Below are positions 30,255-51,600 of a stretch of 64,000 nucleotides of DNA, one piece after another. The stretch covers positions 1 through 64,000 of IMG/VR virus record IMGVR_UViG_3300036781_000838; one strand, 5' to 3'. Every line of letters begins with the position of its first letter. Positions within the stretch are counted from its first letter, which is position 1. A program made the translations under genes and the position numbers. The notes under the pieces were generated by a model that did not search any database, had not been told where the DNA came from, and saw only the letters and a program-made list of their open reading frames with translations. Source of the DNA: a virus.

Positions 30255-33200
30255 ATGCCGAACCAGTTACAGAATTCTACGAATGTATCTACCAATGAGT
30301 TTACGGGAGGAATGAAAAAGGACCTTGATCCGGCGCTAATGAAGCCGGATACCTGGACCCATGCCCGCAATGCTGTAAACAATTCCCATAACGGAGAATT
30401 GGGTGTTATTGGTAACGAACCTGCAAACCTGTTGTGTGTTCAGCTCCCCTATACCTTTATTGGCGCCATTAATATCATTGCTGAGAAATGGGCTGTCTTT
30501 TCTACGGACAATACCAATTCAGAAATTGGCTTATTTGATGAGATTTTGTGCAGTTATAAAAAAATTATCAATGACACCTGCCTGCGGTTTAAAACGACCA
30601 ACCTCATTACCGGAGAGTCAAAAAAGAATTTTGACTGTACCTACTCTGTTTATTTCGATGACGGATTGAACCCGTCGCGTTACCTCAATATTGACAGGCC
30701 GGTTTATACCTTAAAATCCCGGCAGCCCGCGGGCAGTTGTGTAATACCTGAATACACTACTACTGTAGACTGCCAGGCATTGCGCTTAGCCCGGATTTTG
30801 GATACTCCCGGGGTAACCTTACAAAAGGGAGCCAGTGGTGGATCCTTACCCAACGGCTCTTACCAGGTAGTGGTGGCCTACACGGTCAACCAGATACGGG
30901 TAACGGACTATTTCACCCCCTCCAATGTTCAATCATTATTCTCCCACCAAAACCTGCAAGGGTCCCTGGAGATTGATATCTCCGGAATGGATACTTCTTA
31001 TGATGAATTTGAGTTGGTTGCTATCTCCTATATAGGAGAAAAAACAAATGCACAGAAAGTGGGTACTTATTCTACCCGCCAGCGAAAGGTATTTATTGAC
31101 ATTCTGGATCCGCGTCTTCCGGTAATTCCCCTGGAAAATATCCCCCTGCAAACGCCCTCATATGAAAGGAGTGACGCCATGTACGAGGTAAGTAACTATT
31201 TACTTCGGGTAGGCGTTTACACCAAACCGGAATTTAATTACCAGCCCCTGGCTAATCTCATAACTCCCAAGTGGGTAGCCCTGGAAGTGCCGGCTGACTA
31301 TTATATTAAGGGCGGCAATATCACTTCATATCTAAGAGATGAACAATATGTCTTTTTTATCCGGTGGATCTATAACACCGGGCAGAAATCTGCTTCCTAT
31401 GCCATTGCCGGCCGACAGGCTAATTCAAACGATCGTACCCTGGTCTCCGGAGCTGATGTCTATGAGACTTCAGTAGGAGTGGCCGTCCCTCCCCAAAAAT
31501 GGCAGGTAGACAATACCGCTACTATCACCTCATCTCAAGGATATGCAATTCCAGAAGGCGCTGTCATAGCAGAAGGAGAAATGGGGTATTTTGAATCTAC
31601 CGAACGTTACCCCGATGATCAGTCGGTCGTATGGGCCGACCTATGCGGGAAGAACATTCGATTTTGCAAATTTCCCGATAATTCGCTCATTCACCTGTCT
31701 GGCCGGTTGGGGGCTACCATTCGAATTCTGGGGGTAAAGTTTGAAAATATCGCACATCCCCTTGATTTTGAAGGTAACATATTGACCGACATCATCGGAT
31801 ACGAAATACTCCGCGGTTCGAGAGAAGGTAACAAGTCTATTATCGCCAAGGGGCTTATTAATAATGTGGCAGAGTATACGATTCCAAACAGCGTTAGCAC
31901 CCGTAAAGGATTATATCCGAACTATCCCTACAATGACTTAAGGACCGATCCTTTCCTGTCTGCTCAGCGGGTGAAAGGTGGATGTAATGATACTGGATAC
32001 CAGGCTATGGGGACCTATCATCAGGACATATTTACATTTCACTCCCCCGAAACCCAATTCAGGAATCCATTTCTGTCTGCCCAGGAATTGCGGGTAGAGT
32101 CTGAAGAATTTGGATCAGTAACCGGAAATTTTGAACCGGTATTCAAACACCCAAAGCACAAGTTAATCCGTGATTTTGCGCTGTATACGTCGGGTATAGT
32201 AGGTGTTGGTGCAGGATTACTAGCTATCCAGGGAAAAAAGACCACCACGCTGAAAGGGGGAAGCGCATTTAATGCAGGAATAACAGGAGCGGGTACTACC
32301 GTAATGACAAGCACCGGCAACCTGACTGCCCCGCTTTCAGATCTCACTTTAGCTGCTCCCATCGGAGGAGGTATTGGCTCCTCCACCGCCATTGCTGTAG
32401 AAGGAGGAGTAATGTCTTCCAATCCAGTTCTGGCGGCTGCTGGTGGCACCTTCCTTTTTACCTACTTTTTAGGCAAAGGAACAGAGGAAGCCGTTCGTAT
32501 CATTAAGGGATTATTGCCCTATAATCAGTTCGCTTACCAATACAATTCTCATGGGTTTTATAGTGACTTTATACCGTCCAAAGAAGGCAATAAGCGTAGG
32601 CTGATAACGGAATCTAATTACCTCGAACCCTACCTGCAGGAGTTCACCGCTGACTACCGGGTTAATAACTTGTTCAGGCCGGCGACACTTATCTTGCAAG
32701 TGAACAAAAATATTGCCAATCCCAGTACACAGGATACTACCCGCACAACCATTGGTAACCTGGGGCTATGGGGCAATCCCACGCAACAGTTTACCACCAC
32801 GACCTCAGCCTACTATGCCGCCCTTAAAAATAATATTGAAAACCAATATGGGCAATTAGATTCGGTTATCCAGATTCCTATCAGCCAGGGGGTATTAGCC
32901 ACTACCCCGGAAAAAAAGATCCGGTTCATGTCGCCTGTTTTATTTGGGGGCGACCAGTATATTAACCGGTACACCGAGAAAAGCATTATGTTTTTCTTTA
33001 ACGACTGGATGTTTGACCAGCCGGACGGATATGAATTTGATTATAACCTGGCCTATAACTTACCCTATGCCCGGTATTGGGTAAACACCCAGGACTTTGA
33101 TATCAGCCAGTTGATGCAGCCGTTTTTAAAAACTGCTGCCGGTATTGCCATTGGGGGAGTGATAGGATCAGAGATAGGATCGCTACTCGGTAGTGCCACT

Positions 33201-35015
33201 TTAGGAGAGCAAATCGGGGAGATCGCGGGAGGAGCCGCAGGTGTGGCGCTGTCCATGAATGATTTTAGCAATGCGGTCTTGCCAAATGATTACGCCCATC
33301 TGGACCGAAATAGTTCAGATTGTAATACAAAAATATCCTTTGGGATTTATAATGCTTATTTCTACCTGTTTTGTAATGGGGTAAGAGACTTTTTTGTTGA
33401 GTCAGAGCTTAATATTGCCCAACGGGACTACGATCAAAGTACCGCCTCCCGGCACTATGACTATAAACAGTATACCGATCTTGACGCCCTATTCAAGTCG
33501 GACATCATCAAGGCCGGCAATAACTACAAATACGATTATTCCCTGTCTGTTTCGAGGTTGTTGCACAATTATATATCCTGGGGTGCGGTTCTGCCAAGAG
33601 ACTACGATCCAACGATTGCCGAACAATGCTATAGCTATTTTCCCAATAGGATTATATATAGTTTACCCCAGCAGGAAGAACTTAAAAAAGACAACTGGAC
33701 AGCATTCCTTACTAACAACTATAAAGATTTTCAACGCAAGATCACGGCCATAAAAAATGTCAATAAAACGGGGGCAATTATCTACTTCAGCAATGATAGC
33801 CCATTGTTATTTCAAGGGGTTGATTCCTTGCAGACAGATGGAGGAATAAAAATTACTATCGGGGATGGAGGGCTATTCAACCAGGCGTTTCAGAGTACGA
33901 CCAATTCCGATGTAGAATATGAATACGGGGCCTGCCAGAACCGGGGTTCCATTATCGGTACCCCGCAAGGAGTTTTCTCCGTTGGCGCAAACCAGGGAAA
34001 GATATTCCAATATGGTAATGGGCTTGAGGAGATATCCCGGGATGGTAATAAGTGGTGGTTTGCACAATATTTACCACTGAAGTTATTACAGGATTACCCG
34101 GATTTTGATTATCCGGATAACCCGGTTATCGGGATAGGTGTTGTTTCCGGCTATGACAACACGAATGAGATGATCTACATTAGCAAAAGGGATTACCAGG
34201 TTAAGCCCACTTATCAAAACAAGCTGACCTATCAGTCAGGGCTTACATTTATTTTAGATGGGAATATACCCGTGCAATTGGGAGATCCTTTTTATTTCGA
34301 TGACGCTTCTTTTACGATATCATACGATCCAAAAATAAAGGGTTTTGTCAGTTTCCATGACTGGATACCTGAAGCAATGCTGCCTTCCCGGAACCATTTG
34401 CTAACTATTAAAGAAGGTGGGATCTGGAAGCATAATTCAAGATGTGACCTTTTCTGTAACTATTATGGAATTGCTTATCCTTTTGAAATTGAATATCCGG
34501 TGACTGTCAGCCAGGAGGTAACGACGCTGAGAACAATTGAATACCAATTGGAAGCCTATAAATACCTGAATGACTGCAGGGATCAATTTCATATCCTGGA
34601 TGAGAATTTCGACCGGGCTGTTGTCTACAACTCAGAGCAATGCTCCGGGCTATTGCGGTTGAATATAAAACCGAAGAATAACCCGTATACGCTGAACCAA
34701 TATCCGTCAGTTGGTCTAAATGGTATAGACATACTCTTCTCCAAGGAAGAAAATAAATACAGGTTCAACCAGTTTTGGGATGCAGTGTCAGATCGCGGGG
34801 AATTCACGGGTAAGCAATACAATATCTGGACGGTTAGCCCGAATGGATATACTAAAGAACTCAATACACTGGCCATAAAATACTCGAAGAGCGCCCTGCA
34901 GCATAAGAAATTCCGGCATTTTACCCAAAGGCTGTTACTGCGTAAAACAGTATCGAACGATGTTAAGTACCTATTGAAACTTACCAACCAAAAACAACAA
35001 AGATCCTTACGCTAA
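30255..35015 (+). CDS. muzzle / tail stabilisation protein
   Basis: 1586 aa; 'FTGGMKKDLD...ARNAVN', 'DDGLNPSRYLNID', 'GYEILRGSR', 'FHSPE', 'GGDQYINRY', 'FTISY...SFHDW.P'. Confidence 0.8.
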   Translation: MPNQLQNSTNVSTNEFTGGMKKDLDPALMKPDTWTHARNAVNNSHNGELGVIGNEPANLLCVQLPYTFIGAINIIAEKWAVFSTDNTNSEIGLFDEILCSYKKIINDTCLRFKTTNLITGESKKNFDCTYSVYFDDGLNPSRYLNIDRPVYTLKSRQPAGSCVIPEYTTTVDCQALRLARILDTPGVTLQKGASGGSLPNGSYQVVVAYTVNQIRVTDYFTPSNVQSLFSHQNLQGSLEIDISGMDTSYDEFELVAISYIGEKTNAQKVGTYSTRQRKVFIDILDPRLPVIPLENIPLQTPSYERSDAMYEVSNYLLRVGVYTKPEFNYQPLANLITPKWVALEVPADYYIKGGNITSYLRDEQYVFFIRWIYNTGQKSASYAIAGRQANSNDRTLVSGADVYETSVGVAVPPQKWQVDNTATITSSQGYAIPEGAVIAEGEMGYFESTERYPDDQSVVWADLCGKNIRFCKFPDNSLIHLSGRLGATIRILGVKFENIAHPLDFEGNILTDIIGYEILRGSREGNKSIIAKGLINNVAEYTIPNSVSTRKGLYPNYPYNDLRTDPFLSAQRVKGGCNDTGYQAMGTYHQDIFTFHSPETQFRNPFLSAQELRVESEEFGSVTGNFEPVFKHPKHKLIRDFALYTSGIVGVGAGLLAIQGKKTTTLKGGSAFNAGITGAGTTVMTSTGNLTAPLSDLTLAAPIGGGIGSSTAIAVEGGVMSSNPVLAAAGGTFLFTYFLGKGTEEAVRIIKGLLPYNQFAYQYNSHGFYSDFIPSKEGNKRRLITESNYLEPYLQEFTADYRVNNLFRPATLILQVNKNIANPSTQDTTRTTIGNLGLWGNPTQQFTTTTSAYYAALKNNIENQYGQLDSVIQIPISQGVLATTPEKKIRFMSPVLFGGDQYINRYTEKSIMFFFNDWMFDQPDGYEFDYNLAYNLPYARYWVNTQDFDISQLMQPFLKTAAGIAIGGVIGSEIGSLLGSATLGEQIGEIAGGAAGVALSMNDFSNAVLPNDYAHLDRNSSDCNTKISFGIYNAYFYLFCNGVRDFFVESELNIAQRDYDQSTASRHYDYKQYTDLDALFKSDIIKAGNNYKYDYSLSVSRLLHNYISWGAVLPRDYDPTIAEQCYSYFPNRIIYSLPQQEELKKDNWTAFLTNNYKDFQRKITAIKNVNKTGAIIYFSNDSPLLFQGVDSLQTDGGIKITIGDGGLFNQAFQSTTNSDVEYEYGACQNRGSIIGTPQGVFSVGANQGKIFQYGNGLEEISRDGNKWWFAQYLPLKLLQDYPDFDYPDNPVIGIGVVSGYDNTNEMIYISKRDYQVKPTYQNKLTYQSGLTFILDGNIPVQLGDPFYFDDASFTISYDPKIKGFVSFHDWIPEAMLPSRNHLLTIKEGGIWKHNSRCDLFCNYYGIAYPFEIEYPVTVSQEVTTLRTIEYQLEAYKYLNDCRDQFHILDENFDRAVVYNSEQCSGLLRLNIKPKNNPYTLNQYPSVGLNGIDILFSKEENKYRFNQFWDAVSDRGEFTGKQYNIWTVSPNGYTKELNTLAIKYSKSALQHKKFRHFTQRLLLRKTVSNDVKYLLKLTNQKQQRSLR

Positions 35016-37573
35016 TGAAAAGAAAATTACCAGCCAGGCAACCGGGGGGTACAGTCACAAATTCTGGCTATTTACCTGATTCTCCCGATAGGTTCAATCC
35101 GTACAATATCATCCCTGGTAACGTGATTACCATGGATAAGGTTCCCCACGATGTATTGGCAATTACAGATAATGGGCAGACCAAACTTATGAAAAAGAAC
35201 TCCGGACTTCACCGGTTTACCGGCGCGAAATCCGTAACTGAAGTTCCAATGTATAATATCGGGGGCAAAATTCCATCACAGTTGCCACAGGAGTTAGTGA
35301 TGTACCAAATGCAGTTGGGTGGACCAGCACCTAACGCTTCAGACAGCCTTGCATTATATAACAACTCCCAGGCACTGTTAAATTTTTATACCCAAAGAGG
35401 ATATGTAAAAGACCATGCTCCAGCAAATTCTACGCAGGCAAAAGGAGAAATGGATAGAAAATTTGCAAGAGATTCATTTGTGAATATGCCCATGGTGCAA
35501 ACTGATCAGGGTATGCTGCAAAACCCTGCCATGTCTCTATATTACCAACCCATAAACCACAATCAGTATAAGCAACGGGAAAATGCAAATGGGATACTTG
35601 ATACCAGGGCGCCGATGGCCTTATATGATAAACGCATTGCTCCCACAAAACACTATGCATTTCACAATGAAAACCCTAACGATCCATTAAATGGGGACCA
35701 GGTCGAGTTTCAGGGATATGATCCGGAGAAGGTCAAGCCTGCAAATTTTAAACAAATGCAGCCACAGGGTCCTGGTCCTTTACCATCAAATGCCAATGCC
35801 ACTCCCGTTCCGGCGCCAGTCCAACAACGGGTACCTACTCCGCCCATACACGACACTCTTCCGCAAGGAGAACCAGTATATGGCCCCCAAAACTCAATGA
35901 TAGGAGTATATGATGGTAAAGGTTTCTTTCCGGTAAAAGACTATAACACTTATAAGGTAAATCCGCAAGATCAGGACCTGCTTAGTAATTCCGACCAATT
36001 GAAGCAATATATGCTGAATAAAACAAAAGGATATCCCGTCGAGATGCACCAGGAGGGCGGGTCCTTGCCTTCGGGGTCATCGGTAAAATCTTCCTTTGAT
36101 AAGGATGGTAATCTGCTGTTTAATCCCCATTTTACCCAAGTCACTTACCCGGGAGATACACTTACCAATCATCAAATTCCATTTGCGGCCAAATATATGT
36201 ATGCCAATGGCACGGGTTCAGGAAATATAACAGCCAAACGTGTAGCCGGGCCTTATGGAGCGCTTGAGCAGGGATATGAGTACAGTCCGGCTGACAAGGA
36301 TATGAAAAAAATAAAGGCTTACCAGGATAATATGAGTGCCATGGAAAAGTTAAAGGCGATCCTGGGATTTTATGGTTCCGATAATATGCCTGGACCGAAT
36401 GGACAGTTACAACAGGGTGGTGTCATGATGAGGGATTATCAAATACCTATGGCCCAAAGCGGCCTGTCCGCTTTCACCTGGGGAAATCTATCCGATGGGC
36501 AAACTCCTACCGCTCCAGGGCAAGGACCGGTATTCCAAGTGGATCAAGCAAATGGTACACCGACTTCTCCTTACAATATTTCGCCTATCGAAAAAGGAAA
36601 TAAGCCCGGGCAATGGAATATACAGAAACAGACTTCCTGGGGACCTAACGTTGAAGGCGCTACCGCTTTTGTCGGGGCAATGGGCGCTGTCGCCAATTCT
36701 TTAAACAAAAGGACAAACAGCGCTCTTTACAACAACCAGGTTAACCGGAGTACTAGCGATGCTCAGTTTCAGACTTTTAATTCAACCCTGAACAGGGGTT
36801 TTATCGATAAAAATTCAGGGATGACTGCTCCCAATAGGCAAACCCTGACTCAATTCGCCAATTTGCCCTACCAGAGTTTTTATGGGCAGCCTCCCATAGC
36901 CCAGACTGGCGCTGAATTACCGCTGATAAATGGTCCTCAGACACCACTAAATAGCATCAACGCCCAGGTAGATAAGGGAATGCCTGCTTTATCACCGGTT
37001 GGATACCCTGCTGACCAGCCAACGCAACCCCCAGTTCAGGTACCACAGCAACAGAGCGCAGGTCCTGATGCCTACCAGGCAGTGAAGGATTTTATAAAAA
37101 AACAAGAGGGATTTGCTAAAAAGGCTGCCTGGGATCATAAGCAGTTCACCAATGGCTACGGAACAGAAGCAAAAGCACCTGATGAGGTCATCTCCCGGGC
37201 TGAAGCGGACAAACGCCTGGATAACTACCTTTTACCGACCGTACAGAAGATCCAGTCGAAGCTACAAGTTCCGGTGAATACCGGGCAGCTCACAGCTCTT
37301 TCCTCCATGGCGTACAATGGTGGCTATGGTGTAGTTAAAAAGCTCATCAACCAGATAAACAAAGGGGTTGGCGCTGATCAAATTGCCGATACAATAAAAA
37401 AGACTGCCATAACCGTTGACAATGGTGCACGGATTTTGGATGAACTGGTTTCCCGCCGAAAAAAAGAAGCTGGTCTCTATACAAGGGGTTATAAGGTGGG
37501 CGGTCAATACGATTTAAGTCATAGCGAGATTCAAAATTTGATGAATCAAGGTTATGAACTGGAATTTATGTAA
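35015..37573 (+). CDS. virion cargo/ejection protein with C-terminal GH24 lysozyme domain
   Basis: P/Q-rich modular protein; 'FIKKQEGFAKKAAWDHKQFTNGYGT...ALSSMAYNGG...LVSRRKKEA' (E-x8-D-x4-T). Confidence 0.8.
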   Translation: MKRKLPARQPGGTVTNSGYLPDSPDRFNPYNIIPGNVITMDKVPHDVLAITDNGQTKLMKKNSGLHRFTGAKSVTEVPMYNIGGKIPSQLPQELVMYQMQLGGPAPNASDSLALYNNSQALLNFYTQRGYVKDHAPANSTQAKGEMDRKFARDSFVNMPMVQTDQGMLQNPAMSLYYQPINHNQYKQRENANGILDTRAPMALYDKRIAPTKHYAFHNENPNDPLNGDQVEFQGYDPEKVKPANFKQMQPQGPGPLPSNANATPVPAPVQQRVPTPPIHDTLPQGEPVYGPQNSMIGVYDGKGFFPVKDYNTYKVNPQDQDLLSNSDQLKQYMLNKTKGYPVEMHQEGGSLPSGSSVKSSFDKDGNLLFNPHFTQVTYPGDTLTNHQIPFAAKYMYANGTGSGNITAKRVAGPYGALEQGYEYSPADKDMKKIKAYQDNMSAMEKLKAILGFYGSDNMPGPNGQLQQGGVMMRDYQIPMAQSGLSAFTWGNLSDGQTPTAPGQGPVFQVDQANGTPTSPYNISPIEKGNKPGQWNIQKQTSWGPNVEGATAFVGAMGAVANSLNKRTNSALYNNQVNRSTSDAQFQTFNSTLNRGFIDKNSGMTAPNRQTLTQFANLPYQSFYGQPPIAQTGAELPLINGPQTPLNSINAQVDKGMPALSPVGYPADQPTQPPVQVPQQQSAGPDAYQAVKDFIKKQEGFAKKAAWDHKQFTNGYGTEAKAPDEVISRAEADKRLDNYLLPTVQKIQSKLQVPVNTGQLTALSSMAYNGGYGVVKKLINQINKGVGADQIADTIKKTAITVDNGARILDELVSRRKKEAGLYTRGYKVGGQYDLSHSEIQNLMNQGYELEFM

Positions 37574-37594
37574 TTTATTAGTAGCACCTATCCT

Positions 37595-39619
37595 ATGAAA
37601 ATACGTATCAAAACCGGTCCACCGGCACCCATATACCAATCTGGCGGTTCACCATCCACGGGGGATCAGCAAAACCTGGGTCTGTTTACCAATCAGACCG
37701 TCCGGATCGATCCCAATGATTATAACCGACCTGCAGGCATCGATGATGTCAGGACGACCTACCCTGAAGTTCCGGCAGAACAGGCGAATGTGGAGGTAGA
37801 AAAAGGCGAAGTGGTGGTGTCCCCGGATCTGGCTACCATTTATAAGGCAGGAGGCAAGAAACATTCCGCTGGAGGAACAAAGATCAAGGCTCAAGAGGGA
37901 GCTTATATTGTATCGGATTTCATTAAAACCGATCCCCGGGTGCTGCAAACCCTTGGATTTGACCCCGAAAAGGATGGTAAACAGACCTGGGCCAAATTAC
38001 TCCAGTCAAAAGTGGACCCGGCTTATTATAACACACTGGCTAGTGTACTTTCTGACAAAGAAAAAGGGAAAGATGTTGATCCTTATCTCTACAATACCGC
38101 TAAGGTAAAAATGCCCGGGCTACAAGAAATTGTCTCCAAAGTGGCACTCGGAAATGAGTTATCCAAAGCGGTGCAGGGTAAGCAGTACAATATTCCCCAG
38201 ATTGCCGGTCTTGCCATGCAAGGATTGCAATACCAGGAGCCTAAACCAGGCGATCAACCCCTGACAGAAGCAAAAATGGGAGGTAGTTATCTACCCAAAG
38301 CTCAATCGGGGAAATCTGTTTCTTCCGACTTATTTAACCCTTTTTGGAATTACTACCTCAATGAGCATCCGGAAGCGCAAGTGTCTCCCGATGTACAACG
38401 TAACCCTAACCAGGTATTATCATCCCCGCAGCATAAAATAACCAGCGGCGTCTATGGGAACAACTGGGATCTGAATGAATTTAAGCAACGACATGATTGG
38501 TATTTCAAAGACCATCCTAATTTCAATCCCCAGGATCCCCAGCAGGTAAAAGACTTCCAGCAAAAATACAATAGCCGGGCATCGAGTAAATTCGGTCAAC
38601 CTTATTTCTATGGCAACCAGGATTTCAGGGCTATCGATGGCAAACTCGGGAAGTACACCTATAATGCTCCTAATTTATCCGACGATACGGCTGCCGAGAT
38701 CCCTTCTTCCCCAGGTAAGCAATTGCCCCCAGCCCCGGTAACGGTACCCAAGGGGCAATTTCCTGTTCCGAATAACCCTGCATTCTCCAATTCATCCCGG
38801 GTCCCTGGAATAAATCCGAATGCATTTGATCAAATGGCATTATTAAATGCCATGGCTTCACCGGTGAATACCTATTATCCCTGGGCTGCCAAACCACAAG
38901 CGGCATATATCAACCCCCAGTTTGATGAGCCGAATTATTATCCGATACAGTCAGCCCAGCGGCAACGCATGGATATGCTTAACCAGGTGAGTAACCCCAC
39001 TACTGCCCGGGCAGTCGGCTCGTATCAACCTGATCAGATCTCCGGTATTATCCAGGAAACACAGCGGGCGCGGGGTAATAATATGCAAGCTGCCACAAAC
39101 GCCCAGACCTTCAATGCCCAGACCTACGACACACTCTCCGGGCAGAATGCCCAGATTGATACTGGATTATATGATAAAACGGTCATGAGCAAGGAGCAGC
39201 GGGATATAGCTGAAAAGCTAAAAATGCAGGATGTTCAGGGAGCTGCTCATAATATGGTCAATAATATGACCGAAATGCAATACCGGATGGCCATGAATCC
39301 TCAATTCAGTGTTTCCGGTCCTTTCTGGAATCATATCGGTTTTAACGGAAACGGAAAAGGCTTGGACAGTCCCGGAAGCGCAAGCTATGGCAACCAATCA
39401 ATGACCCGTGAACAATTCCTGGCGCAATACCCGGGCTATGCTAGTTTGGCCACCGACCCACAACAAGCATATAAAATAGATGAAGCAATGCGCCAGGAGC
39501 GTGACCGGCAAGAAGGTTTGCTGTTCAAGAACAGCAGAAACTTTTCTTCAAATATGTACAATCCATATCTCGCACAAATGACGGGGATGGGTATGGGCTA
39601 TCCGCAAGCCGGTTATTAA
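37595..39619 (+). CDS. virion cargo protein
   Basis: 'ANVEVEKGE...GKKHSAGG' motif, Q/N/M-rich C-terminus, position between muzzle and RNAP. Confidence 0.7.
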   Translation: MKIRIKTGPPAPIYQSGGSPSTGDQQNLGLFTNQTVRIDPNDYNRPAGIDDVRTTYPEVPAEQANVEVEKGEVVVSPDLATIYKAGGKKHSAGGTKIKAQEGAYIVSDFIKTDPRVLQTLGFDPEKDGKQTWAKLLQSKVDPAYYNTLASVLSDKEKGKDVDPYLYNTAKVKMPGLQEIVSKVALGNELSKAVQGKQYNIPQIAGLAMQGLQYQEPKPGDQPLTEAKMGGSYLPKAQSGKSVSSDLFNPFWNYYLNEHPEAQVSPDVQRNPNQVLSSPQHKITSGVYGNNWDLNEFKQRHDWYFKDHPNFNPQDPQQVKDFQQKYNSRASSKFGQPYFYGNQDFRAIDGKLGKYTYNAPNLSDDTAAEIPSSPGKQLPPAPVTVPKGQFPVPNNPAFSNSSRVPGINPNAFDQMALLNAMASPVNTYYPWAAKPQAAYINPQFDEPNYYPIQSAQRQRMDMLNQVSNPTTARAVGSYQPDQISGIIQETQRARGNNMQAATNAQTFNAQTYDTLSGQNAQIDTGLYDKTVMSKEQRDIAEKLKMQDVQGAAHNMVNNMTEMQYRMAMNPQFSVSGPFWNHIGFNGNGKGLDSPGSASYGNQSMTREQFLAQYPGYASLATDPQQAYKIDEAMRQERDRQEGLLFKNSRNFSSNMYNPYLAQMTGMGMGYPQAGY

Positions 39620-42620: not shown

Positions 42621-45600
42621 GTGCCCGACTTCCACAGTCTTTACAATCCTGACCTTTCATCCGCCCCAGTACAAATAGCTCCTCCTGATCTGCACCCGGT
42701 ACAAGATCCGTTCCAGGGATATAATCCTGACAATGGTATCAATCACGTTGATGCTGCCTTGTCTACCCTGGATAAAAACCTCTTTAAGCCGACGACGGAT
42801 AGAATTCTCCAGCCCGTTGGCTATGATGCCGACGCGTTAAATGCAGATAGGTATAGGAAGTCGGATTATTTCGGACAACTGGGATTTAACCCCTTTTCAA
42901 ATAATGAAGAGCGATATGGTGACCGTCAATCGAACTTCAATAAGTTAGGAAGCGCTTTTGGGGGAGCCTGGCAACTGATTAAAAATCAGTTTGTGGAGCA
43001 AGCTGGTTCGTGGGGGGATACCCTCAACTTTTTCAAGGACAATAAATCAGCCTTTGAGGAGTCAGATTTCGATGAGATTAATAAGCACCAAAGGGAACTC
43101 TTCACCGATCATGCCATTTTTGAAACGGCAGCGCAGCGGGATAGTATCTGGAATTTCAACACGATTGCCAATACCATCCAGCAATCAGGCTATGCGGTAG
43201 GCGCCATATCTGAGATTGCTGCTGAGGAGTTAGCCCTATCGCTACTTACTGCTGCGACTTTTGGAGGTACCAGCGAACTACAAGTGGCCAGGTCTGCTAA
43301 GCTGGCAGCATCAGTAGGAGGTGTCTTGCGTAAAACTGAGCAACTCGGGGAAGCGCTTAATACCGCCTCCCGTCTACGGAAGGTATTTGAGACCGTCAAT
43401 AAAGTGAATCCACTGCTGGACAATACCCTTGAATTTGCAGCAAACCTGAAGAATATTTCCAGGGCTGAAAATATTGCTGCCGGTGGCAGTAAGTTAGGTA
43501 ATCTGCGTACAGCCGCAAGAGGGTTTGGCGCTTTCTATCGGGATGTAAGAGAGTTCAACGCTGCTGTTGCAGAAGCAAAATCGGAGGCCGCAAGTTCCTA
43601 CCAGGATTTAAAAAGCGTACTGACAACTCAGTATAAAAAGGACCACGACGGTAACGACCCGGTAGGAACTGATGCTCAAAAGATCCAGGATACTGCCATG
43701 GGCGCTGCCCAAACCAACGGCGTATCGAATACCTACCTCATCATGCTATCCAACAAGATCGGCATGGGGAATATCATGGGTGGTTTCAAAGGGCTTAAAG
43801 ATTTAGAAGAAAGTGCCGAAAGTGGCATACTAAGGTTTAGTGAAAAACAGGCGGCAAAGACCGGTGTAAAATTGGCAGATGCTGCCAGCAACAAATGGTT
43901 GGCATTTAAACAGAATTTGTTACGCACTCCATTTAGTTACTTAAAGACTAACCTGGACGAAGCGTTACAAGAAAACCTACAGGATGTTTCCCATGATGCA
44001 ATTCAAAACTATTACCAAGCTAAATACAATGACAACAAAGGAGAACCTGTTAAAAGTATTGCTGATTATATTACTGCTGCTGCAGCTAACCAGTTTCACG
44101 TTCAGGGCGCAAAAACCTTTATTTCCGGTTTTTTAACGGGGGCAATCATCGGTCCCGGGGAATACGCTATCGAGAAATCAGGGAACATAAAACAATACCT
44201 GACTGATAAAACCGGGTACCAACAACGGCAGGCAGAAGTAAAACAATCCCGTAACGAGATTATTGACGCTGGCAATAAGATCTGGAAAAACCCGCTCAAT
44301 TTCGACTATAAAACGGGAGATGTGACCCTGCAGGCTAACTTCAATACAATCCTGAAGCAGGCTGCCCAGACCAATAATAAGGAAGCATTTTATGATATAA
44401 AGGACGATGCCTTGCGGCATTTTATCTTAACCGGAATTCGGTCTGGTGCGCTCGATAGCTTTAATAATCGTCTTAAATCTTACACGAAAAACCTGTCACC
44501 GGAAGAATTTACTACTGCTTTTGGTATAGAGTATAACGAGAAGAACCAGGGAGCCGTAGTGAACCAGGTCAATGCATTTGGTGAGCGGGCCAGTGAGATC
44601 AAGGAACTCCACGAGAATATATCCGCTGATCTTAAAAATCCTTTCAACCCCTTCCGGTTCACTCCGGGTGAGCGGATCATAGGAAACCCACAGTATGTAA
44701 AAGAAGCATTATCCTATAAAGCCTGGAATGATGCAGTAGATAATTATGTCTTTACCAAGAGTTATTACCAAGATACCATCCGGGGTCAGGCAAATATATT
44801 GTCGTCATTTAGAAATAAGGCTGGATTTAAAGACGCCAATTTCAATGATATCTATTTACTGACTTCAAAGGAACACCTCAACGCGGAGATTGATAATCTG
44901 CAAAAGGAGGTTAAAAATCTACAGCCCGATAAAGGAGATGCCGGCGCGAGGACCTTAAACACCCAGAAGCGTGACCGTTTAGCGGTTTTAGAAAAATATA
45001 AAGGACACCTGGAAAAATGGTCTGAAAGTTTTGATAAGCATTCGACGTTGCCGGTGGGTGACCAACGTACCAACGCCTTCAATGAAAGTTTTGATGCCTT
45101 TAAACAACAAACTGCCCCCTTATTTGGTGAGTTTATCAACAATGAGCTAAAAGCTACCGATAAAGCCCAAATCAGCAAGGACAATGTGTTAAAGGGGTTC
45201 GATTCACTGCACAACTACATGAAACTGCAGAAGCAGTCGGGTATTATCCTGGATAAAGTGAACCTGCTCGCTGACCCCGGAAATTTCTCCAAATTCTTTG
45301 CTGAACACGACAAAGCCATCAAAGGGGCGTACGATTTCAGTACGGCTGTTCAGGAAGCGACCGGGCCTGCTGACACTGCAACTGTACATTTTAAAGATGA
45401 GAAAGGAAACGACCAATCCCACACCTTCACCGTAGGGGAAACCTATGTGGGAAAAATGTCGCAGCTGGAGAAATACCGGGGGAAAGGGAAAACGGCTACC
45501 CAGTTTAATAATGATAAGATCAAAATAGCGGCTATTTCAGCAGATGGTAAGACCATTTCCATTGCCCTTAATGGGGAGCCTGCAGTTGATATGGATGCCG

Positions 45601-48600
45601 AAGAAGTAGCGAAATTAGCCAGGGACCACAACTGGAAGGAATACAGCAAACTATCACCGATACAACAAACGTATCTCTCTTTAAGGAACAAAATTATTAC
45701 CTACCGCCTCTTGCAAAGAGACAGTAAAGGACTCCCGGTGAAAGATGCCAAGGGTCAGTATGTGCCCCAAGATGTGAAAGGAAGGGTCAAGCTCAATGAA
45801 AAAAAGGACGGTCTTTTATTCGCTTATGGTAATAATACCATTGAATTCAACCCCAAATATGTCGTCAACCAGCAAGACTTGTCTGAATTACCAACGGTGC
45901 AGCAGCAAGCCCTAAAGGAGCAGCAGGACCGGATTCAACGCAATTTTAAAGCGCAAGTTTCCATCTTCGAGGAAGCATTTAAAGACACAGAATCTAAGTT
46001 AGAAGAGCAAAAAGCATTGACCCGGGCCAACCAGGAAGAATTTACAAAAACAACCGAAGATCTCGGTGATTTAAAAGCTCATCTGGACCTGGTTATTGGT
46101 GAACTGGAAAAGAATCCATATAAAGGGATCGGTAGAAGATCAAATGAAAATAAGGCGCTTACCGAACTAAAGGAACTCCTGTCAAAACAGATAGGGGAAA
46201 AAAACCTTTATCTTCAACGGTTAACCCAGGAACAGGAGGTATTACAGCAGTCGTATGAAACCCTCAAGAAGGCAAATGACCTTTACGCTCAGGCTTTTTT
46301 TGAGTTGCAGGAAAATGAAACGCCTTTTGACAAGGGCAATCAGCAAAATATTTATGATAGTACCCAGGGAGACCTTACGGAAGCTGCAGGAGAGCAGGTT
46401 AATAAAAGGTTGTCAGATGAGCAGATTGATGCCTTAATCGAGGATACCCGGGCAGAAGTGGAACTGATCCAGGAGCGCATTGTGGTGGTTCATGATCTGG
46501 TGACCACTGCAGAAAAGGCCCTTCGCAAAATTGAGAAGTTTGATGATATCATAAAGGCGGTTTCTGAAATAACAGACAAGCGTCAACTCATCACTTATTT
46601 ATCGACGCTCAAAGGGCAGTCGGACGACCCTGAAAAACGTTCTATCTTATCGGCATTAATAAAGGGACTCAATAAAGGAGATCTCGGGTTTGAGGCTCAA
46701 TTTATATTGGAAAAGGCAGCTATCCTCAAGGATTCGAGGAAGGAACTGGCTGATTTACTGGAGAACGCAGCTCAGGTGCAGGATAAATATGACCGGCTAA
46801 CACTTGCCCGGGAACAAAGGGCCAAAATAAATATCCTGCAGCAGCGGGTTAATTATTTAAAACAGGTCCAGGATGCTATCAGCACCGGGTATGGTAAGAT
46901 TGTTGCCAAACAGTCGCTTACCCGGCAAGCCCATCTTACCAAAGCAAAGACTGCAGGAATCGCCCAGGAACTCCATGATTTTGGGGATATTATGTCTACC
47001 AGCCCTGTTATTGTTTCTACGGAGAGTCCATTCTTTGATGATATCCATAAACCCCGGCTAGACCAGGTTGGACTATTCAAAACTGCAGACAGGCATTACC
47101 TGAAGGATACCGATCCAGAGCCTACATCGCCGCAGGCTGCCCGTTTCTTCAAATTCAGCGAAAATGTGACTCCGAACGGAGCCTATTATTTCCAGGTTGT
47201 CCATGAAGGCAATGATGCCTATGGAATCCGGGTGCCAGGTATTTATAAAGATGATATCAAGGTAATTGTTGTAAAAAAGGATGGTATAGTATACAAACCA
47301 GTTGGGGTCGATGGAATTTACCTGGATGCGCCACATAAAGATAACCTGGTATATACCTCCATTCATGGTAATGAGCAATTACTGGATAAAAGCCCTACTG
47401 AAGCCCTTACCTGGGTCAAAGAGAACTTTGCTACCAAATCCATGACGGATGAGGATATTATAAATAAAATTAATGAGTTTAAGACCTTCCGACAGGTAAT
47501 CAAAGATAAAATTGCCCACGGGCAACCAGTTTATTTAACCATAACAGACAAATCCATCGGCATTCAATCAAGAGAGCCGTTGGATGTTAATACAAAGCGA
47601 CCCCAGGAGTTACCCTTGGAGGGACGCCTGATCGCACCTGACAACTCCGACTGGGTCCATATAAAACATCCTGATGGAACACCTATTCACCTGGAAGTAT
47701 CCACTACTGGATCTGTATTAAATAAAAAGGTCAAAGCCGGCCGAATAGCTTTAGTAAAAGATGACGGTTCCATATTCCAGGTTTACAATCGTCAACTTAA
47801 TGGCGCAGAGAAGGCAAATATCATAGGAATCATCAAAATGATCGCACCCCTGATGGGGCGGAGGTACCTGGATAAAGAACGTCTTGCGGAGATTGATTCC
47901 TTAGCAAAGGCTGGGAAGATATCTCCTGACCAGGCAATTCATTTGTCCAATCCCCTTACGGAATCGGAACAGGATAGGTTTGACAAAGCCATCAACTATT
48001 TAATGGGTGTTGTCTACTGGAGGCAAGCAAAAGAAGGAGAAACAGTAGGTAAGGACCAGTTCCGGGTGGCCAAGGGGATGTTATACCGCGGCGAAATGGC
48101 TGTTGCGTTTAATCCGGAAGAAATTGAAAAAAACAAGGATGCCTTAATGGAGGGGTTGTACCACCAGGTCAATAATAAAAAGGTCGGGGATACAGCAAAT
48201 GTCTTTTATGAAATGACCGTGCGGGAGGAGCAGGTTGCCGAAAAAAAATGGGATAATTATCCTCATTACCTTTTGGATGGATCCGCAGGGCGTGTGCCAC
48301 CTATTTATACCAACGTCAAACCGTTTGTATCCAAAACGGATGTTTCCAGTACGCAACTAAGGTCAGTTTATTTGACCTACGGCTTTAATGCTGAATTTAC
48401 GGCCGCGCCGGTGGAAAATAGCAAAAGTGATCAAAATTCGGGAGAAACAAGGGTTTTTACCGATCCGCTGGCTATTCCCAAAGAGCAGGGAGCGCAAATT
48501 GCCTTTGTTCGGAAGAAAATCGATAAAACTACTGACCTTAATGTCATCGCACAATGGGACGGCACCCGGTTCAAAGTTGTAAAACTAATCGACCAGAATG

Positions 48601-51600
48601 GCCAGGATTTTTCAGATCGCAAAGATATCATCGAAAAGAATGAGGATTATATCAATGCAACGATAAGTTCCCTTGAAACCAATATCAATATTCCCGACGC
48701 TTATGATGCAGAACTAAACTCATTTAAAACAGTCTACCACCGTATAGAGACTTACAACGGGCAACCTACGCAACCAGGAGGTTCCCCTGGAATAGCATCT
48801 GAAGCTACAACTGGGACGTCCGGTTCTGCGAGGAAGAAAGATATCTTGGATAGGGTTTTATCCGTAGCTGATACCCCAGAAAACTACCATATTTGGTCCA
48901 ACACCCGGGACGGACAGGATCGCCATCTGTTGGGAGAGCAAATACAATTTGCGATTAATCAATTGCTGTCTGTAGATCCTGCCAAACTAACCAAAGAGGG
49001 GATAGCTGATTATTTAAAAAATATTAAAGCCTTTCAGTCAAAGGATATTCTTGAAAAGGTCACGGGAATTCTCTTAAATCAGCAATTAGAAGAAGCGTCA
49101 ACGGACACTTCCGGTAATACCTACTCCCAAGCTCAGATAGATACGCTGATACAACAGGCTGTTACGACCGGTATTACTGATATTATAGATGAAAATGCAC
49201 GGCTGGCCCTTACGGATGACCCAAAAGTAAAAGAGGACATTGAGGCATTTAAAGCCTGGATGAAAGAACGGCTTCCCCAGGTCCCTGTTCACAAGGTGCT
49301 ACACCTGATCAATGGGCGTAACTGGGGACAGTTCATCAAGGGCGCTATTCAGATATTCCAAAATGCAGAGCAAGGAACAGGTTACCATGAGGCTTTTGAA
49401 GCGGTATGGAATGCCTACCTGACCACAGAGGAGCAGCAGGATCTGGCGGGAGAGTTCAGAGAGCGGGTTGGGGCCTTTACTAATCCCTTTTCAAAAGCTA
49501 CGAAAAGTCATACCGAAGCATCTATGTATGATGTGCGGGAGATGCTAGCGGAAGAATTCAAGGATTATGTTGCTAAGGATCAACCTATAGTTCGGCCAAA
49601 TTCGCCAGTTCGCAATACGATTTTCAGGCGCCTGTGGAATTTTATCAAGCGCATGTTGGGGCTAACTGTCAATGATAACCAGGCATTTAATTCAAAAATC
49701 AACCATCTTTTCAATAAAATTGATACTGGAGACTATGCTGACGCTATCCCGATCACTACATCCAGTGAACCTTCTTACCGGGCTTTGGAGGGGAATACGG
49801 TTGAATTTACCCAGGCTGTTATGGAAGGGGTATCAGCTATATTCTTTTCAAAACTATATGCCTCCCAAAACAACATTGAGGCGCTGTTTAGCAAGGGAAG
49901 TAATGCTAAACTCTTTAATGAGTTATATGAGGGGACCAGGGGAACCCTGGAGCAGTACTTTAATGCCCCCATTAACAGTATAGTAAAAGTATTGACAGAA
50001 AAGGGAATTACCCATGATAAGATAGCGGCTGAAGTGCTTAAATACACCAATGGCTCAGATTACCGTCAAAAAAAGTCAGTACTGGACCGTTTTAACGGAG
50101 AAGTGCTGACCGAATTCAAAAAGTTTATTGGGCAATTTGGCTTGCAATTTAAAGAGGTGAACAATGAAGAAGGTGTAAATGACGAGCGGGGAGAGGATAA
50201 TATCAACGAGATTGAGGATAAGGAACAAACAGCTACAAATGCCCTGGGCATACGCGAGTCTATCTACGTTGATCCGCGGAATATGACAAAAAGCACTGTT
50301 CGGCTGCTGATTGCTTCTCTTACTGCGGATGAATACAAACCCAACAGCAACCAGGTTCAAATAAAGAAAAATGGCTTGGGACTGCCCACGTTAGAAGATT
50401 ATGGGCGGAAAATTAATATACTGCTCAATGAGTTGCATGGTGTTGTTCCGGTATATGAAAAGGGGAAACGAGTTGAAGCCATAGATCTGATGTTCAGGAA
50501 GCTGGACGAGCGATTTAAAAATACAGACGGCAGGTTTAAGAAGGGGTTTGAGTGGATACAAAAACTGAAGTCCCGGCTGAAGTTTGAATTAAATGGTCAA
50601 AAACTGTCTTTTGAGCACTTGACGGAGGATGAGATCCGGTTGTTAATAGCATTTGAATCTTCGTTTACCAACAACAAAAACCTTCCTTTTAAGATACTGA
50701 TTGGGGAAGGCGGCTATCTTACGGCTGTAGATCCGGTGGTGGTTACCAACGCAGCCAAAGTAAAAGAACACTGGCAAAACAGCCTGAAGAGTACGTCCAG
50801 ACAACTTAAGTCCAACGAGGACCTGGCGAAAGCTCCATTGACCTATATAGGCGCCGATGGTAAAATAATGTTTAATACCCGGTCAGAATCCATGGTCCGA
50901 TTACTTTCAGCCTCTACTAATCAGACCAAGCTCGATGGTTTAAAAAAAATGGGCATCAACTTCACCCAATCTGACGCGGAATTATTAAACTCGCCCGATA
51001 TCACCAAAGCGATTGCTGAGTCTTTTAACGGGATAAGCTATGCGTTCAGGGAGGGGCTAATCAGCGGATTTGATGATCTCTTTGGAAAACAGGTTGTCAA
51101 TGGTCCCATTTCTTCCCTTCTGGCTATTGAACTGGACGCAACTGCTGAGGACAATATTTTATCACACCAGAATGCGGCCGGGAAGCAACAGTTCTCCATT
51201 ACCCTCCCTTCAGCAGTATCGAATACAATCAACTCCTTAAAGGGAGTAGATAATATTTCCGACTTTATTTTATCAAACCCCCAGTATGGCTCCGTCTCGG
51301 CAAACGGTGAGATTCTGCTAAATCCCTACCAGGCGAATAGTCAATTGCTGAAAACGGACGGGATTTTATTCGATAAAAACGGTAAAAAGAAGCGGGATAT
51401 CGACTACCAGTTCATTCTTGGAATGTCCTTACTCACGGACAATGAAGGGGACAATACAGACGATCTGAAATACCCGGATAAAATTGTCCAGGAGATATAC
51501 CACCTGCTGAATGGAACCTATTATACAGTGATCAATTCTGACAAGAGTAGTGAATTCGGGTTAAACATGGGTCATTTTATTTCCTGGCAGGACATCAAAA

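Follow-up and report, generated by a model that had tools for sequence, protein, structure and literature searches.

A conserved junction peptide at the module seams of crAss-like phage cargo proteins, a candidate docking tag

Introduction

Two adjacent genes of the virus in IMG/VR record IMGVR_UViG_3300036781_000838 encode long proteins that are punctuated by short peptides ending in one or two glycines. What are these peptides for? The initial annotation listed eleven of them, described them as x-[Q/K/N]-x-G-G, and suggested that they are protease cleavage sites or capsid-targeting tags with which a phage loads interchangeable modules into its head. We studied them in the window, that is, the whole stretch of 64,000 nucleotides that was taken from this record; positions below refer to the window, and the features of the cargo region are all on the + strand. 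Our preferred answer, to which we give a probability of roughly 40%, is that the motif is a candidate junction or docking tag that stays uncut, in the C1-type cargo of an integrated crAss-like phage.

Results

The two genes follow a crassvirus muzzle gene, in the order muzzle, P0001, P0002 on one strand. The muzzle gene (30255..35015) matches PF25731 (crAss_MUZ, 1.6e-27) and phrog_37948 (virion structural protein, 1e-61). P0001 (35015..37573; 852 aa) is a modular protein of the cargo type, judging from its translation, Pfam matches, relatives, and predicted structure. P0002 (37595..39619; 674 aa) is a homologue of the cargo protein C1 (gp45) of crAss001, judging from structural and profile matches. 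It opens with a basic leader, which is followed by a portal-binding-type domain and a disordered junction; a variable region then leads to a long helical C-terminal domain. The second of these parts (aa 45-215; 37727..38239; pLDDT > 90) resembles the portal-bound domain crAss_CARG1: for aa 45-197 of the AF2 model, the top structural match is 7qog_M from crAss001 (VIA-align Z 6.5, rmsd 3.1 Å, 101/126 residues; the runner-up scored 4.6), and as this Z is under 8, we consider it moderately well supported that P0002 carries a portal-bound CARG1 domain. Profile comparison of the P0002 family with gp45 by hhalign gave E = 9.5e-4 (gp45 461-510), and PF25725 (crAss_CARG1) matches the family member P0013; a Pfam search of P0002 itself did not reach PF25725 at E <= 0.01. 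[quoted passage not shown]

The locus resembles that of C1 in crAss001 (Bayfield et al. 2023, PMC10172136; PDB 7QOG chain M; PF25725) in several ways. The cargo gene lies just past the muzzle gene (the order in crAss001 is gp44, gp45, gp46), there is a portal-bound-type domain and a long helical C-terminal part, and there are aromatic-x-x-G-G tags, which bracket the ordered pieces in gp45. Unlike in crAss001, the cargo is encoded by two separate genes, and unlike gp45, P0001 has a GH24 lysozyme and lacks gp45's glycine-zipper membrane segment.

All eleven listed motifs are present upon translation at the positions given for them, and they lie at module boundaries, as the initial annotation had claimed: in low-confidence linkers, after basic leaders, on the flanks of the lysozyme, at the edges of a 125-aa insertion, and at points of gene fusion. 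P0001 begins with a basic leader; small modules, some beta and some helical, come next, together with the 125-aa insert, and a P/Q-rich linker, the GH24 lysozyme, and a conserved C-terminal tail complete it. Its model is poor (mean pLDDT 45). RQPGG (aa 8-12; 35036..35050; pLDDT < 50) closes the leader and corresponds to KKPGG in the relative P0003. YNIGG (aa 80-84; from 35252) and MQLGG (aa 99-103; from 35309) form a double junction (35252..35323), seen in relatives and in the pLDDT profile, that separates a beta module (aa 30-80) from a helical module (aa 104-135); residues 81-103 have pLDDT < 50 with ordered modules on both sides, and the ordered module aa 30-80 is flanked by the first three motifs.

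HQEGG (aa 345-349; 36047..36061) is at the left edge of the insertion (aa 352-476; 36068..36442), which is missing from P0003, the closest relative: in the BLASTP alignment, aa 1-351 of P0001 correspond to aa 1-343 of P0003 and aa 477-852 to aa 346-719. The insertion is limited exactly by HQEGG on one side and by LQQGG and AQSG on the other, so that it has its own trailing tag (LQQGG, 36407-36421); by alignment with relatives, AQSGL (36452..36466) is the single-glycine second half of a two-part junction. A homologue search with this orphan module was empty, and Atlas gave no lead. Another single-glycine variant, AQTGA (36899..36913; AQLGV in P0003), precedes the P/Q-rich linker to the lysozyme (aa 695-818; 37097..37468; PF00959, 1.7e-14; phrog_7, endolysin; tblastn). 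The lysozyme does lie between the last two motifs of P0001, AQTGA at aa 629 and YKVGG at aa 826. YKVGG and the conserved tail (37490..37570) follow the pattern GG-[EQ]Y[ED]L…EI..L…GY.[LI]E in the alignment with relatives, and this position is the junction in relatives whose genes are fused.

In P0002, YQSGG (aa 14-18; 37634..37648; pLDDT about 45) closes the basic leader MKIRIK…, and the two-part junction AKMGG-SYLPK-AQSGK (38270..38314, AQSGK from 38300) comes right after the portal-binding-type domain. G229 and G230 in this junction are at least 90% conserved among 78 sequences, though the linker has pLDDT of about 40. P0002 also has two copies that were absent from the earlier list, YKAGG (37841) and HSAGG (37862). 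These are conserved strand or turn elements inside the folded domain rather than linkers, and conservation reaches at least 90% for G87, H90, G93, and G94.

Among the relatives, modules between the motifs have been gained or lost, swapped for others, or split. GH24, SLT, M15, and HExxH-containing modules are placed differently across P0003-P0016: the lysozyme, SLT, and M15 domains are found between tags, at positions that vary from one relative to the next, and HExxH strings, as read from the sequences, are in P0004 and P0015 only. In P0005, P0001-like and P0002-like parts are in one chain; in other phages, too, the tag marks the point of fusion of the two genes, and in the fused forms, the leader MKIRI is retained internally, about 9 residues beyond the tag. 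The reading of the motifs as boundaries of swappable cassettes is thus supported.

Is the tag a cleavage site? Under this explanation, which we consider doubtful, the cargo would be a polyprotein that is cut after or within GG, either at assembly or after injection, to free the leader and the modules, including the lysozyme. A hydrophobic-x-x-G-G sequence with little constraint afterwards resembles known GG-type sites, basic N-terminal leaders of ~15 aa end in GG, and genes are split exactly at the tags. Indeed, Drobysheva et al. (bioRxiv 10.1101/2020.03.07.982082) have proposed that, in crAss phages, cargo proteins that are fused into polyproteins undergo cleavage and that the packaged material includes a zincin-like domain. 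The enzyme could be encoded by the phage, for example as a JAMM/JAB protein beside ThiF or as a zincin module of the giant neighbours, or it could come from the host. The JAMM motif of the first of these appears to be intact (weak match to PF14464, E = 0.0017), it adjoins ThiF (PF00899, 4.8e-14), and crAss001 has such a pair as well (gp76/gp77). But this pair sits in the replication module, and the adjoining ORF L002:7481-8041, which has no Pfam match, encodes a possible ubiquitin-like protein that looks beta-grasp-like from its sequence and ends in …VDSG rather than in the tag.

The head, tail, and cargo module has no detected protease family. P0001, P0002, and the neighbours of 974, 4522, and 1593 aa gave no match to a peptidase family. 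There was no prohead protease between the portal gene, the 417-aa ORF, and the MCP gene, nor elsewhere in the window, and no C5-, C39-, or C48-type match among the ORFs scanned, which included part of the small ones. Also, the giant proteins, which are the proposed polyproteins, lack the tag.

In crAss001, gp45 is established to be inside the virion and to be ejected, and its ordered pieces are residues 214-245 and 425-552, in separate compartments about 420 Å apart (PMC10172136). The first piece begins 4 residues past SAYGG, and the second begins at A425-F-G-G428 and stops 7 residues ahead of FAYGG, so two distant pieces that are each bracketed by tags could be products of cleavage. But AFGG 425-428 is ordered, with no break between it and the portal-bound domain (this is one site in one phage, taken from published residue numbers rather than from coordinates), and because it is within the ordered fragment 425-552, this site is uncut in the mature virion. 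We also re-analysed the peptide masses from the 2018 gel of crAss001. We assign band 3 to gp47 and gp50 and band 4 to gp49; there was no signal of gp45 in bands 5-10, which is weak evidence against the docking tag, as the data cover the bands of >= 58 kDa but not the three lowest ones (11-13). Semi-tryptic masses for cuts after GG gave 1 match, as compared to 3.3 expected from random sites. With one tag uncut in virions, two (YKAGG and HSAGG) inside a folded domain, and no protease found in the structural module, the original reading of the motifs as protease sites or capsid-targeting tags is a possibility that we rank behind an uncut docking joint.

Alternatively, the tags might be passive structural joints, that is, Gly-Gly hinges with a hydrophobic cap that have no binding partner and are not cut, and that are kept solely so that modules can fold independently and the chain can unfold to pass through the portal and tail. 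The tags are in low-pLDDT linkers between modules, YKAGG and HSAGG are just turns inside a folded domain, and the cargo of crAss001 must cross narrow constrictions partly unfolded (PMC10172136). We nevertheless judge this improbable, given what the family conserves. At 48-51% of the GG sites in 166 relatives, there is Y, F, M, or H at position -3 of GG, as compared to 13% in host ORFs, and flexibility does not require an aromatic residue or methionine exactly three residues ahead of GG. Nor does it require a second half of the motif, which is common: GG is often followed by x-[LI]P-x-[AY]Q-x-G, and the family shows a 13-fold enrichment of [LI]P.[AYF]Q. Passive joints also leave unexplained why both glycines are near-invariant across sequences that are just 20-60% identical, and the ordinary linkers of the neighbouring giant proteins do not have the motif.

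The family-wide form of the motif is [Y/F/M/H]-x-x-G-G, and [Q/K/N] at the second position is a local trait of this phage. The x-[Q/K/N]-x-G-G of the initial annotation is real and enriched here, but the determinant in the family is the aromatic residue or methionine one place further upstream, together with GG. The motif ends short basic N-terminal leaders, joins modules, and precedes the C-terminal tail, and it is real and family-wide. Across the family, a GG falls among the first 30 residues in 46% of proteins, as compared to 20% for internal windows; the first GG comes after a median of 15 aa, and the leader has 29% K+R and 3% D+E. A basic leader that ends in GG resembles cleaved leaders, and hydrophobic-x-x-G-G with a variable next residue also resembles the site of a GG-specific protease.

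The enrichment in the cargo relative to other proteins, which had been proposed as a check, is there. Although the pattern was chosen post hoc, after inspection of the data, [QKN]xGG occurs 9 times in the 1,526 aa of P0001 and P0002 versus 12 times in the 17,891 aa of the remaining proteome of the window (binomial P = 1.4e-5; P = 6e-5 against the three other large downstream proteins), and per-protein shuffling predicts only 2.47 (P = 4e-4). Similarly, [YFMH]xxGG occurs 7 times versus 1.43 expected (P = 6e-4). GG pairs as such are not enriched in the two proteins (11 seen, 10.8 expected from composition), so the bias is restricted to the residues that precede GG. The single-glycine variants fit just a looser pattern, x[QKN]xG[GLAK], of which the window has 74 instances; within the window, AQ[ST]G is confined to P0001 and P0002, and in the family it is 5.7-fold enriched over host ORFs. 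Because the glycine codons differ from site to site, the motif is a feature of the proteins and not a DNA repeat. The idea that chance or composition produced the pattern as an artefact in low-complexity sequence rich in G, Q, N, and P, and that it was picked after the fact, can point to the post hoc definition, the 74 loose matches, and the unremarkable GG count, but is already close to refuted by the composition-preserving shuffles, by the comparison with the rest of the window, and by the recurrence of the motif at aligned positions in relatives of 20-60% identity and in gp45 of crAss001.

Discussion

In our preferred explanation, the C1 cargo is split in this phage into an enzyme-carrying part, P0001 with its lysozyme, and a portal-anchored part, P0002. 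We infer that both would be packaged in the particle and injected, and that the motif would dock instead of being cut. Each protein would be a chain of small, independently folding modules on flexible linkers that bear the tag, and the tag would be a recognition peptide made of an aromatic side chain and a tight Gly-Gly turn. It may hold the modules at repeated sites within the particle, such as the portal, the lumen of the tail barrel, or neighbouring cargo chains, without making the chain too stiff to be threaded out via the tail. As the tail-side and portal-side parts can be separate genes, covalent continuity between them is not needed; this also fits with cleavage in the fused forms.

Several known systems are similar in part. 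The polyvalent proteins of phages and conjugative elements, which Iyer, Burroughs, Anand, de Souza, and Aravind reportedly described in 2017 by their domain repertoires, are also large, are delivered in the virion or together with the DNA, and have many unrelated effector and enzyme domains that are often exchanged; the relatives of our cargo proteins, too, contain wall hydrolases and zincin-like modules. Unlike them, P0001 and P0002 have no peptidase domain, and to our knowledge, polyvalent proteins are not described as having one conserved junction peptide at all of their seams. Podophage ejection or internal virion proteins (T7 gp16-type) also carry a lysozyme or transglycosylase domain into the virion on a long non-enzymatic protein. 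The tblastn matches of P0001 include, in Shewanella phage phiY2, an "ejection protein" and, in Vibrio phage D530, an "internal virion protein with endolysin domain", but the similarity is limited to the lysozyme domain (31-33% identity across about 140 aa), and we know of no podophage ejection proteins that are tag-delimited chains of cassettes.

Sites of the GG type include those of the adenovirus protease, which cuts (M/I/L)XGGX after the second glycine; double-glycine leaders, which are cut by C39 peptidases; and ubiquitin-like tails, which are cut by JAMM or Ulp enzymes. Like these sites, our motif has a hydrophobic residue a few places ahead of an invariant Gly-Gly, ends a short leader, and is present in many copies in proteins that are packed inside a capsid. 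Unlike them, it has no cognate cysteine protease that we could find among the ORFs scanned and one site is uncut in the mature virion, and in the adenovirus consensus the hydrophobic residue is one place closer to GG than here. The internal proteins of phage T4 have a capsid targeting leader that is cut by the prohead protease at L/I-x-E, and these proteins are packed into the head and injected. The cargo proteins of this family also have a short N-terminal leader; unlike in T4, we found no prohead protease, and the tag is also internal and near the C-termini.

We found no mention of this junction motif in the papers that could be searched. If it is a docking tag, then modules could be inserted, lost, or exchanged without disturbing packaging, because each cassette would bring its own tag.

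Genomic setting

The window lies inside a block of about 95 kb with low GC content (about 43%), while the surrounding genome (6.17 Mb; contig C20) has 52% GC. The block has an integrase and host genes on one side and SusC/SusD-type host genes on the other. This crAss-like genome is an integrated one, and integration is uncommon among Crassvirales. The block covers about 267,300-362,600 of C20, within which the window corresponds to C20:298579-362578 on the minus strand. The integrase is a tyrosine integrase (PF00589, 5e-18) at one edge of the block (L003:5446-6729, in a neighboring stretch). Host EamA and SusC/SusD/FecR genes flank the block, and the genome is of the Bacteroidota type.

The block encodes terminase and portal proteins (PHROG matches), a major capsid protein (PF23898), ring protein 2 (PF25702), and an ORF that resembles ring protein 1 (PF24228 at E = 2e-4 and 21.2 bits, which is under the Pfam cut-off of 27; and phrog_34036, virion structural, 7e-9). 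Directly downstream of the gene for the muzzle protein (30255-35015; PF25731) is P0001, an ORF of 852 amino acids (35015-37573), and next is P0002, of 674 amino acids (37595-39619), followed by ORFs of 974, 4522, and 1593 amino acids. At the equivalent position, phage crAss001 encodes the cargo proteins C1 (gp45) and C2 (gp46) and then the RNA-polymerase-associated giants (PMC10172136). The 4522-amino-acid protein is a single ORF (42621-56189) that occupies the position of the virion RNA polymerase genes, and it did not match any Pfam family even at E <= 0.1. Another ORF, of 417 amino acids (13288-14541), lies between the genes for the portal and the major capsid protein, which is the usual site of a scaffold or maturation protease; it had no match in PHROGs and a marginal aminotransferase-like match in Pfam.

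A peptide motif of C1-type cargo proteins

The initial annotation noticed x-[Q/K/N]-x-G-G motifs in both proteins. Translation confirmed all of them: RQPGG (35036), YNIGG (35252), MQLGG (35309), HQEGG (36047), LQQGG (36407), AQSGL (36452), AQTGA (36899), and YKVGG (37490) in P0001, and YQSGG (37634), AKMGG (38270), and AQSGK (38300) in P0002. Two further copies in P0002 (YKAGG and HSAGG) had been overlooked. The motif is enriched in cargo relative to other proteins: [QKN]-x-G-G occurs 9 times in the 1,526 residues of P0001 and P0002 and 12 times in the window's other 17,891 residues (P = 1.4e-5).

If each protein is shuffled, then glycine pairs as such are no more common than expected (11 observed versus 10.8 expected), and the bias is only in the residues that precede them (9 versus 2.47 for [QKN]xGG, P = 4e-4; 7 versus 1.43 for [YFMH]xxGG, P = 6e-4); it is hard to believe that the motif arose by chance. 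Both the glycine codons and the flanking codons are different at every site, so selection is acting on the peptide and not on a DNA repeat, and we can rule out a DNA-level repeat or a recombination hotspot.

We found 14 relatives by a word-indexed search with P0001 and 453 by an exhaustive phmmer search with P0002, of which we took 150; our motif statistics are for 166 proteins. In these proteins, Y, F, M, or H is found three residues before 48-51% of GG sites, versus 13% in host ORFs, and the motif has a density of 4.4-5.4 per 1,000 amino acids, versus 0.83. At position -2, the family prefers K, A, S, or Q, so the [Q/K/N] of the initial annotation, although present in this phage, is a local flavor and not a family-wide feature. 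Since A and S are equally common there, an isopeptide or transglutaminase role for this position is ruled out. We therefore write the tag as [Y/F/M/H]-x-x-G-G. It commonly extends to Phi-[KQ]-x-G-G-x(1-3)-[LI]-P-x-[A/Y]-Q-x-G, and two elements of its second half are enriched in the family over host ORFs ([LI]P.[AYF]Q by 13-fold and AQ[ST]G by 5.7-fold). The single-glycine sites AQSGL, AQTGA, and AQSGK match only a loose pattern when taken alone, and they are part of this recurring second half-motif.

A motif scan showed that the neighboring proteins of 974, 4522, and 1593 amino acids and the muzzle protein do not use the tag, so it marks C1-type proteins rather than all cargo. When the phage collection was searched for close relatives by tblastn, the matches were to lysozyme domains only, and scans of viral contigs with back-translated patterns gave no matches. 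The tag is not mentioned in the literature on crAss cargo that we searched.

Relationship to C1 of crAss001

We read P0002 as a homolog of C1 because of three results. First, the best structural match to residues 45-197 of P0002 is the portal-bound fragment of gp45 (PDB 7QOG chain M; Z = 6.5, rmsd of 3.1 Å over 101 of 126 residues; the next match from VIA has Z = 4.6). Second, the profiles of the P0002 family and gp45 agree weakly (E = 9.5e-4). Third, Pfam's crAss_CARG1 family (PF25725) matches the relative P0013. A sequence-profile comparison of the P0002 family to the PDB gave no match and Foldseek alone was not significant, which leaves VIA as the only usable structural comparison. For P0001, we considered whether it could be the N-terminal, tail-resident half of gp45, and we dropped this idea, as hhalign found no similarity between the P0001 family and gp45. 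Our reading of P0001 is instead that it adds an enzyme-bearing part, which in some phages is fused to the C1 homolog. Both proteins are additions to the C1 cargo, or polyvalent-protein, kind.

gp45 carries the same tags as P0001 and P0002 (FDTGG, SAYGG, FAEGG, KAFGG, NAFGG, and FAYGG). [quoted passage not shown] The first piece starts four residues past SAYGG, and the second starts with A425-F-G-G428 and stops seven residues before FAYGG, so the experimental structure also places tags at the edges of modules. The AFGG tag is ordered and continuous with its domain, which shows that gp45 is uncut at that one site.

Tags at the edges of exchangeable modules

In an AlphaFold2 model of P0002 (from an alignment of 78 sequences; mean pLDDT of 77), a disordered leader that contains YQSGG (residues 1-50) is followed by a confident domain (residues 51-215) and by another disordered stretch (residues 220-283; pLDDT of about 40) that begins with AKMGG-SYLPK-AQSGK. 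Beyond residue 283, a helical domain and the long helices of the C-terminus are separated by a further disordered stretch. Although both are located in a linker, conservation of G229 and of G230 reaches at least 90% across the 78 sequences (which are 20-60% identical), as is characteristic of a functional short linear motif. Unlike the linker tags, YKAGG and HSAGG belong to the fold of the confident domain: they occupy strands and turns, where G87, H90, G93, and G94 are conserved. The model of P0001 is poor (mean pLDDT of 45, from a shallow alignment), but it has modules at residues 30-80, 104-135, and 160-247, and RQPGG, YNIGG, and MQLGG fall in low-confidence joints that surround these modules. 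The lysozyme (residues 695-818 of P0001) does lie between AQTGA and YKVGG, as the initial annotation had it.

Across the family, tags open and close the proteins at rates above chance: GG occurs within the first 30 residues of 46% of proteins and within the last 30 residues of 37%, versus 20% for internal windows. Leaders, counted up to the first GG, are very basic (29% K+R and 3% D+E) and have a median of 15 residues.

The initial proposal that the tags separate interchangeable modules is supported by comparisons among relatives. The alignment of P0001 to P0003, its closest relative, covers residues 1-351 and 477-852 of P0001. The intervening 125 residues, which P0003 lacks, follow HQEGG immediately and close with an LQQGG of their own, just before a shared IPMAQSG. 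We did not detect any homolog of this inserted module (residues 350-476) or any useful lead from the Atlas. In other relatives, the lysozyme is replaced by an SLT domain, either C-terminal or near the N-terminus, and each time it is between tags. Modules that are M15-peptidase-like or contain HExxH also occur. P0005 combines P0001-type and P0002-type parts in a single chain (hhalign probability of 82%). Also, the leader of P0002 (MKIRI) is internal in several long relatives, about nine residues past a tag, and the C-terminal tail of P0001 corresponds to that junction.

The HExxH strings are in extra modules of P0004 (HEIEH, at about residues 295-305) and P0015 (HELAH, at about residues 810-820). 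Pfam had no match for either, and judging from the strings themselves, these modules are possible zincin peptidase cassettes within the cargo. In P0043, P0054, P0055, P0058, P0061, and P0095, the internal P0002-type part still starts with Met-Lys-Ile-Arg/Lys-Ile, about nine residues after a tag; these may be true fusions, or they may be adjacent genes that the gene caller joined through a recoded stop codon. Finally, P0007, P0008, and P0016 have M-x-x-W-L-D-K-Y-x-x-G-G at the start and G-G-W-L-D-K-Y at the finish, and these two ends look like halves of one internal junction.

Docking, cleavage, or hinge

Of the roles suggested initially for the motif, neither cleavage nor targeting has been proven. 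The reading that we prefer, with a probability of roughly 0.4, is that the tag is an uncut docking or joint peptide, which would fasten modules to repeated sites within the particle while the chain stays threadable. This is favored by the uncut AFGG of gp45, by the tags at both termini of family proteins, and by our failure to find a protease in the structural module.

The same ordered AFGG and the same lack of a detected protease count against the tag being a cleavage site, which we consider somewhat less probable than a docking joint. Nevertheless, the tag has the shape of a GG cleavage site, it ends a basic leader, genes are split at tags, and tail-side and portal-side parts can exist as separate proteins. 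Drobysheva et al. have proposed cleavage of fused crAss cargo polyproteins, along with packaging of a zincin-like domain (bioRxiv 10.1101/2020.03.07.982082), but the giant proteins of this phage have neither a Pfam match nor the tag. Besides two structural papers and the RNA polymerase preprint, we found nothing in the literature on the processing of crAss cargo.

We also reanalyzed MALDI peak lists from a 2018 gel of crAss001 virions (supplement of PMC6235969; bands 11-13 are absent from the data). Band 3 matches gp47 and gp50 (47 and 50 peaks, versus about 16 for decoys) and band 4 matches gp49 (46 peaks versus 9), which calibrates the gel well, so the bands are ordered from large to small. 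gp45 (90.8 kDa, with up to 12 copies expected) did not rise above decoys in bands 5-10, or roughly 100 to 58 kDa, even though a 2023 study found it in crAss001 virions by LC-MS/MS (PMC10172136). Semi-tryptic masses for cuts after GG were not enriched either (1 versus 3.3 expected, with bands 11-13 absent). These peptide masses neither show nor exclude processing, and they hold no information about gp45.

The only candidate for a GG-directed enzyme that we found in the genome is a conserved ubiquitin-like module with JAMM and ThiF proteins. It is a four-gene block in the replication module, about 8.6 kb past the end of the window (L002:7481-10963, in an adjacent stretch). The ThiF protein (PF00899, 4.8e-14) is beside a protein with a JAMM motif (HIHSH…SDTD; weak match to PF14464), and the block also encodes a 382-amino-acid protein with no match in Pfam. 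Upstream of the JAMM gene, L002:7481-8041 has no match in Pfam either; it encodes a domain that looks beta-grasp-like by eye and ends in …VDSG before an acidic tail, so it is a possible ubiquitin-like gene. crAss001 likewise has a ThiF/metalloprotease pair (gp76/gp77). That the JAMM protein acts on cargo is speculative. Overall, it seems unlikely that the C1-type cargo of Crassvirales is a polyprotein that is cut by a phage-supplied GG-specific enzyme, with [Y/F/M/H]-x-x-G-G as true processing sites.

It is about as doubtful that the tag is a passive flexible hinge. Linker tags such as AKMGG are in disordered stretches, but an aromatic residue or methionine that is always the same number of positions ahead of an invariant GG, along with a conserved second half, are constraints of the recognition type and argue against a linker that is only flexible.

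Implications for Crassvirales

No phages are more abundant in the human gut than Crassvirales, which pack several megadaltons of protein and inject it into Bacteroidota cells. A single peptide, conserved at the junctions and leaders of C1-type cargo, offers a concrete target for mutation in studying how this protein is packed and injected. The tag predicts where modules start and end, and it explains the exchange of wall-cutting enzymes and of orphan modules. It also offers a simple test between the published picture of one chain through the portal and that of a cut polyprotein. If cleavage does occur, then the pieces of crAss001 cargo in the tail and at the portal would be separate polypeptides rather than a single chain passing through the portal, the lysozyme and the other cassettes would become free effectors, and the process would be a phage counterpart of the maturation of adenovirus core proteins. 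If instead the tag signals docking or loading, then it might serve to load foreign proteins into crAss-like particles.
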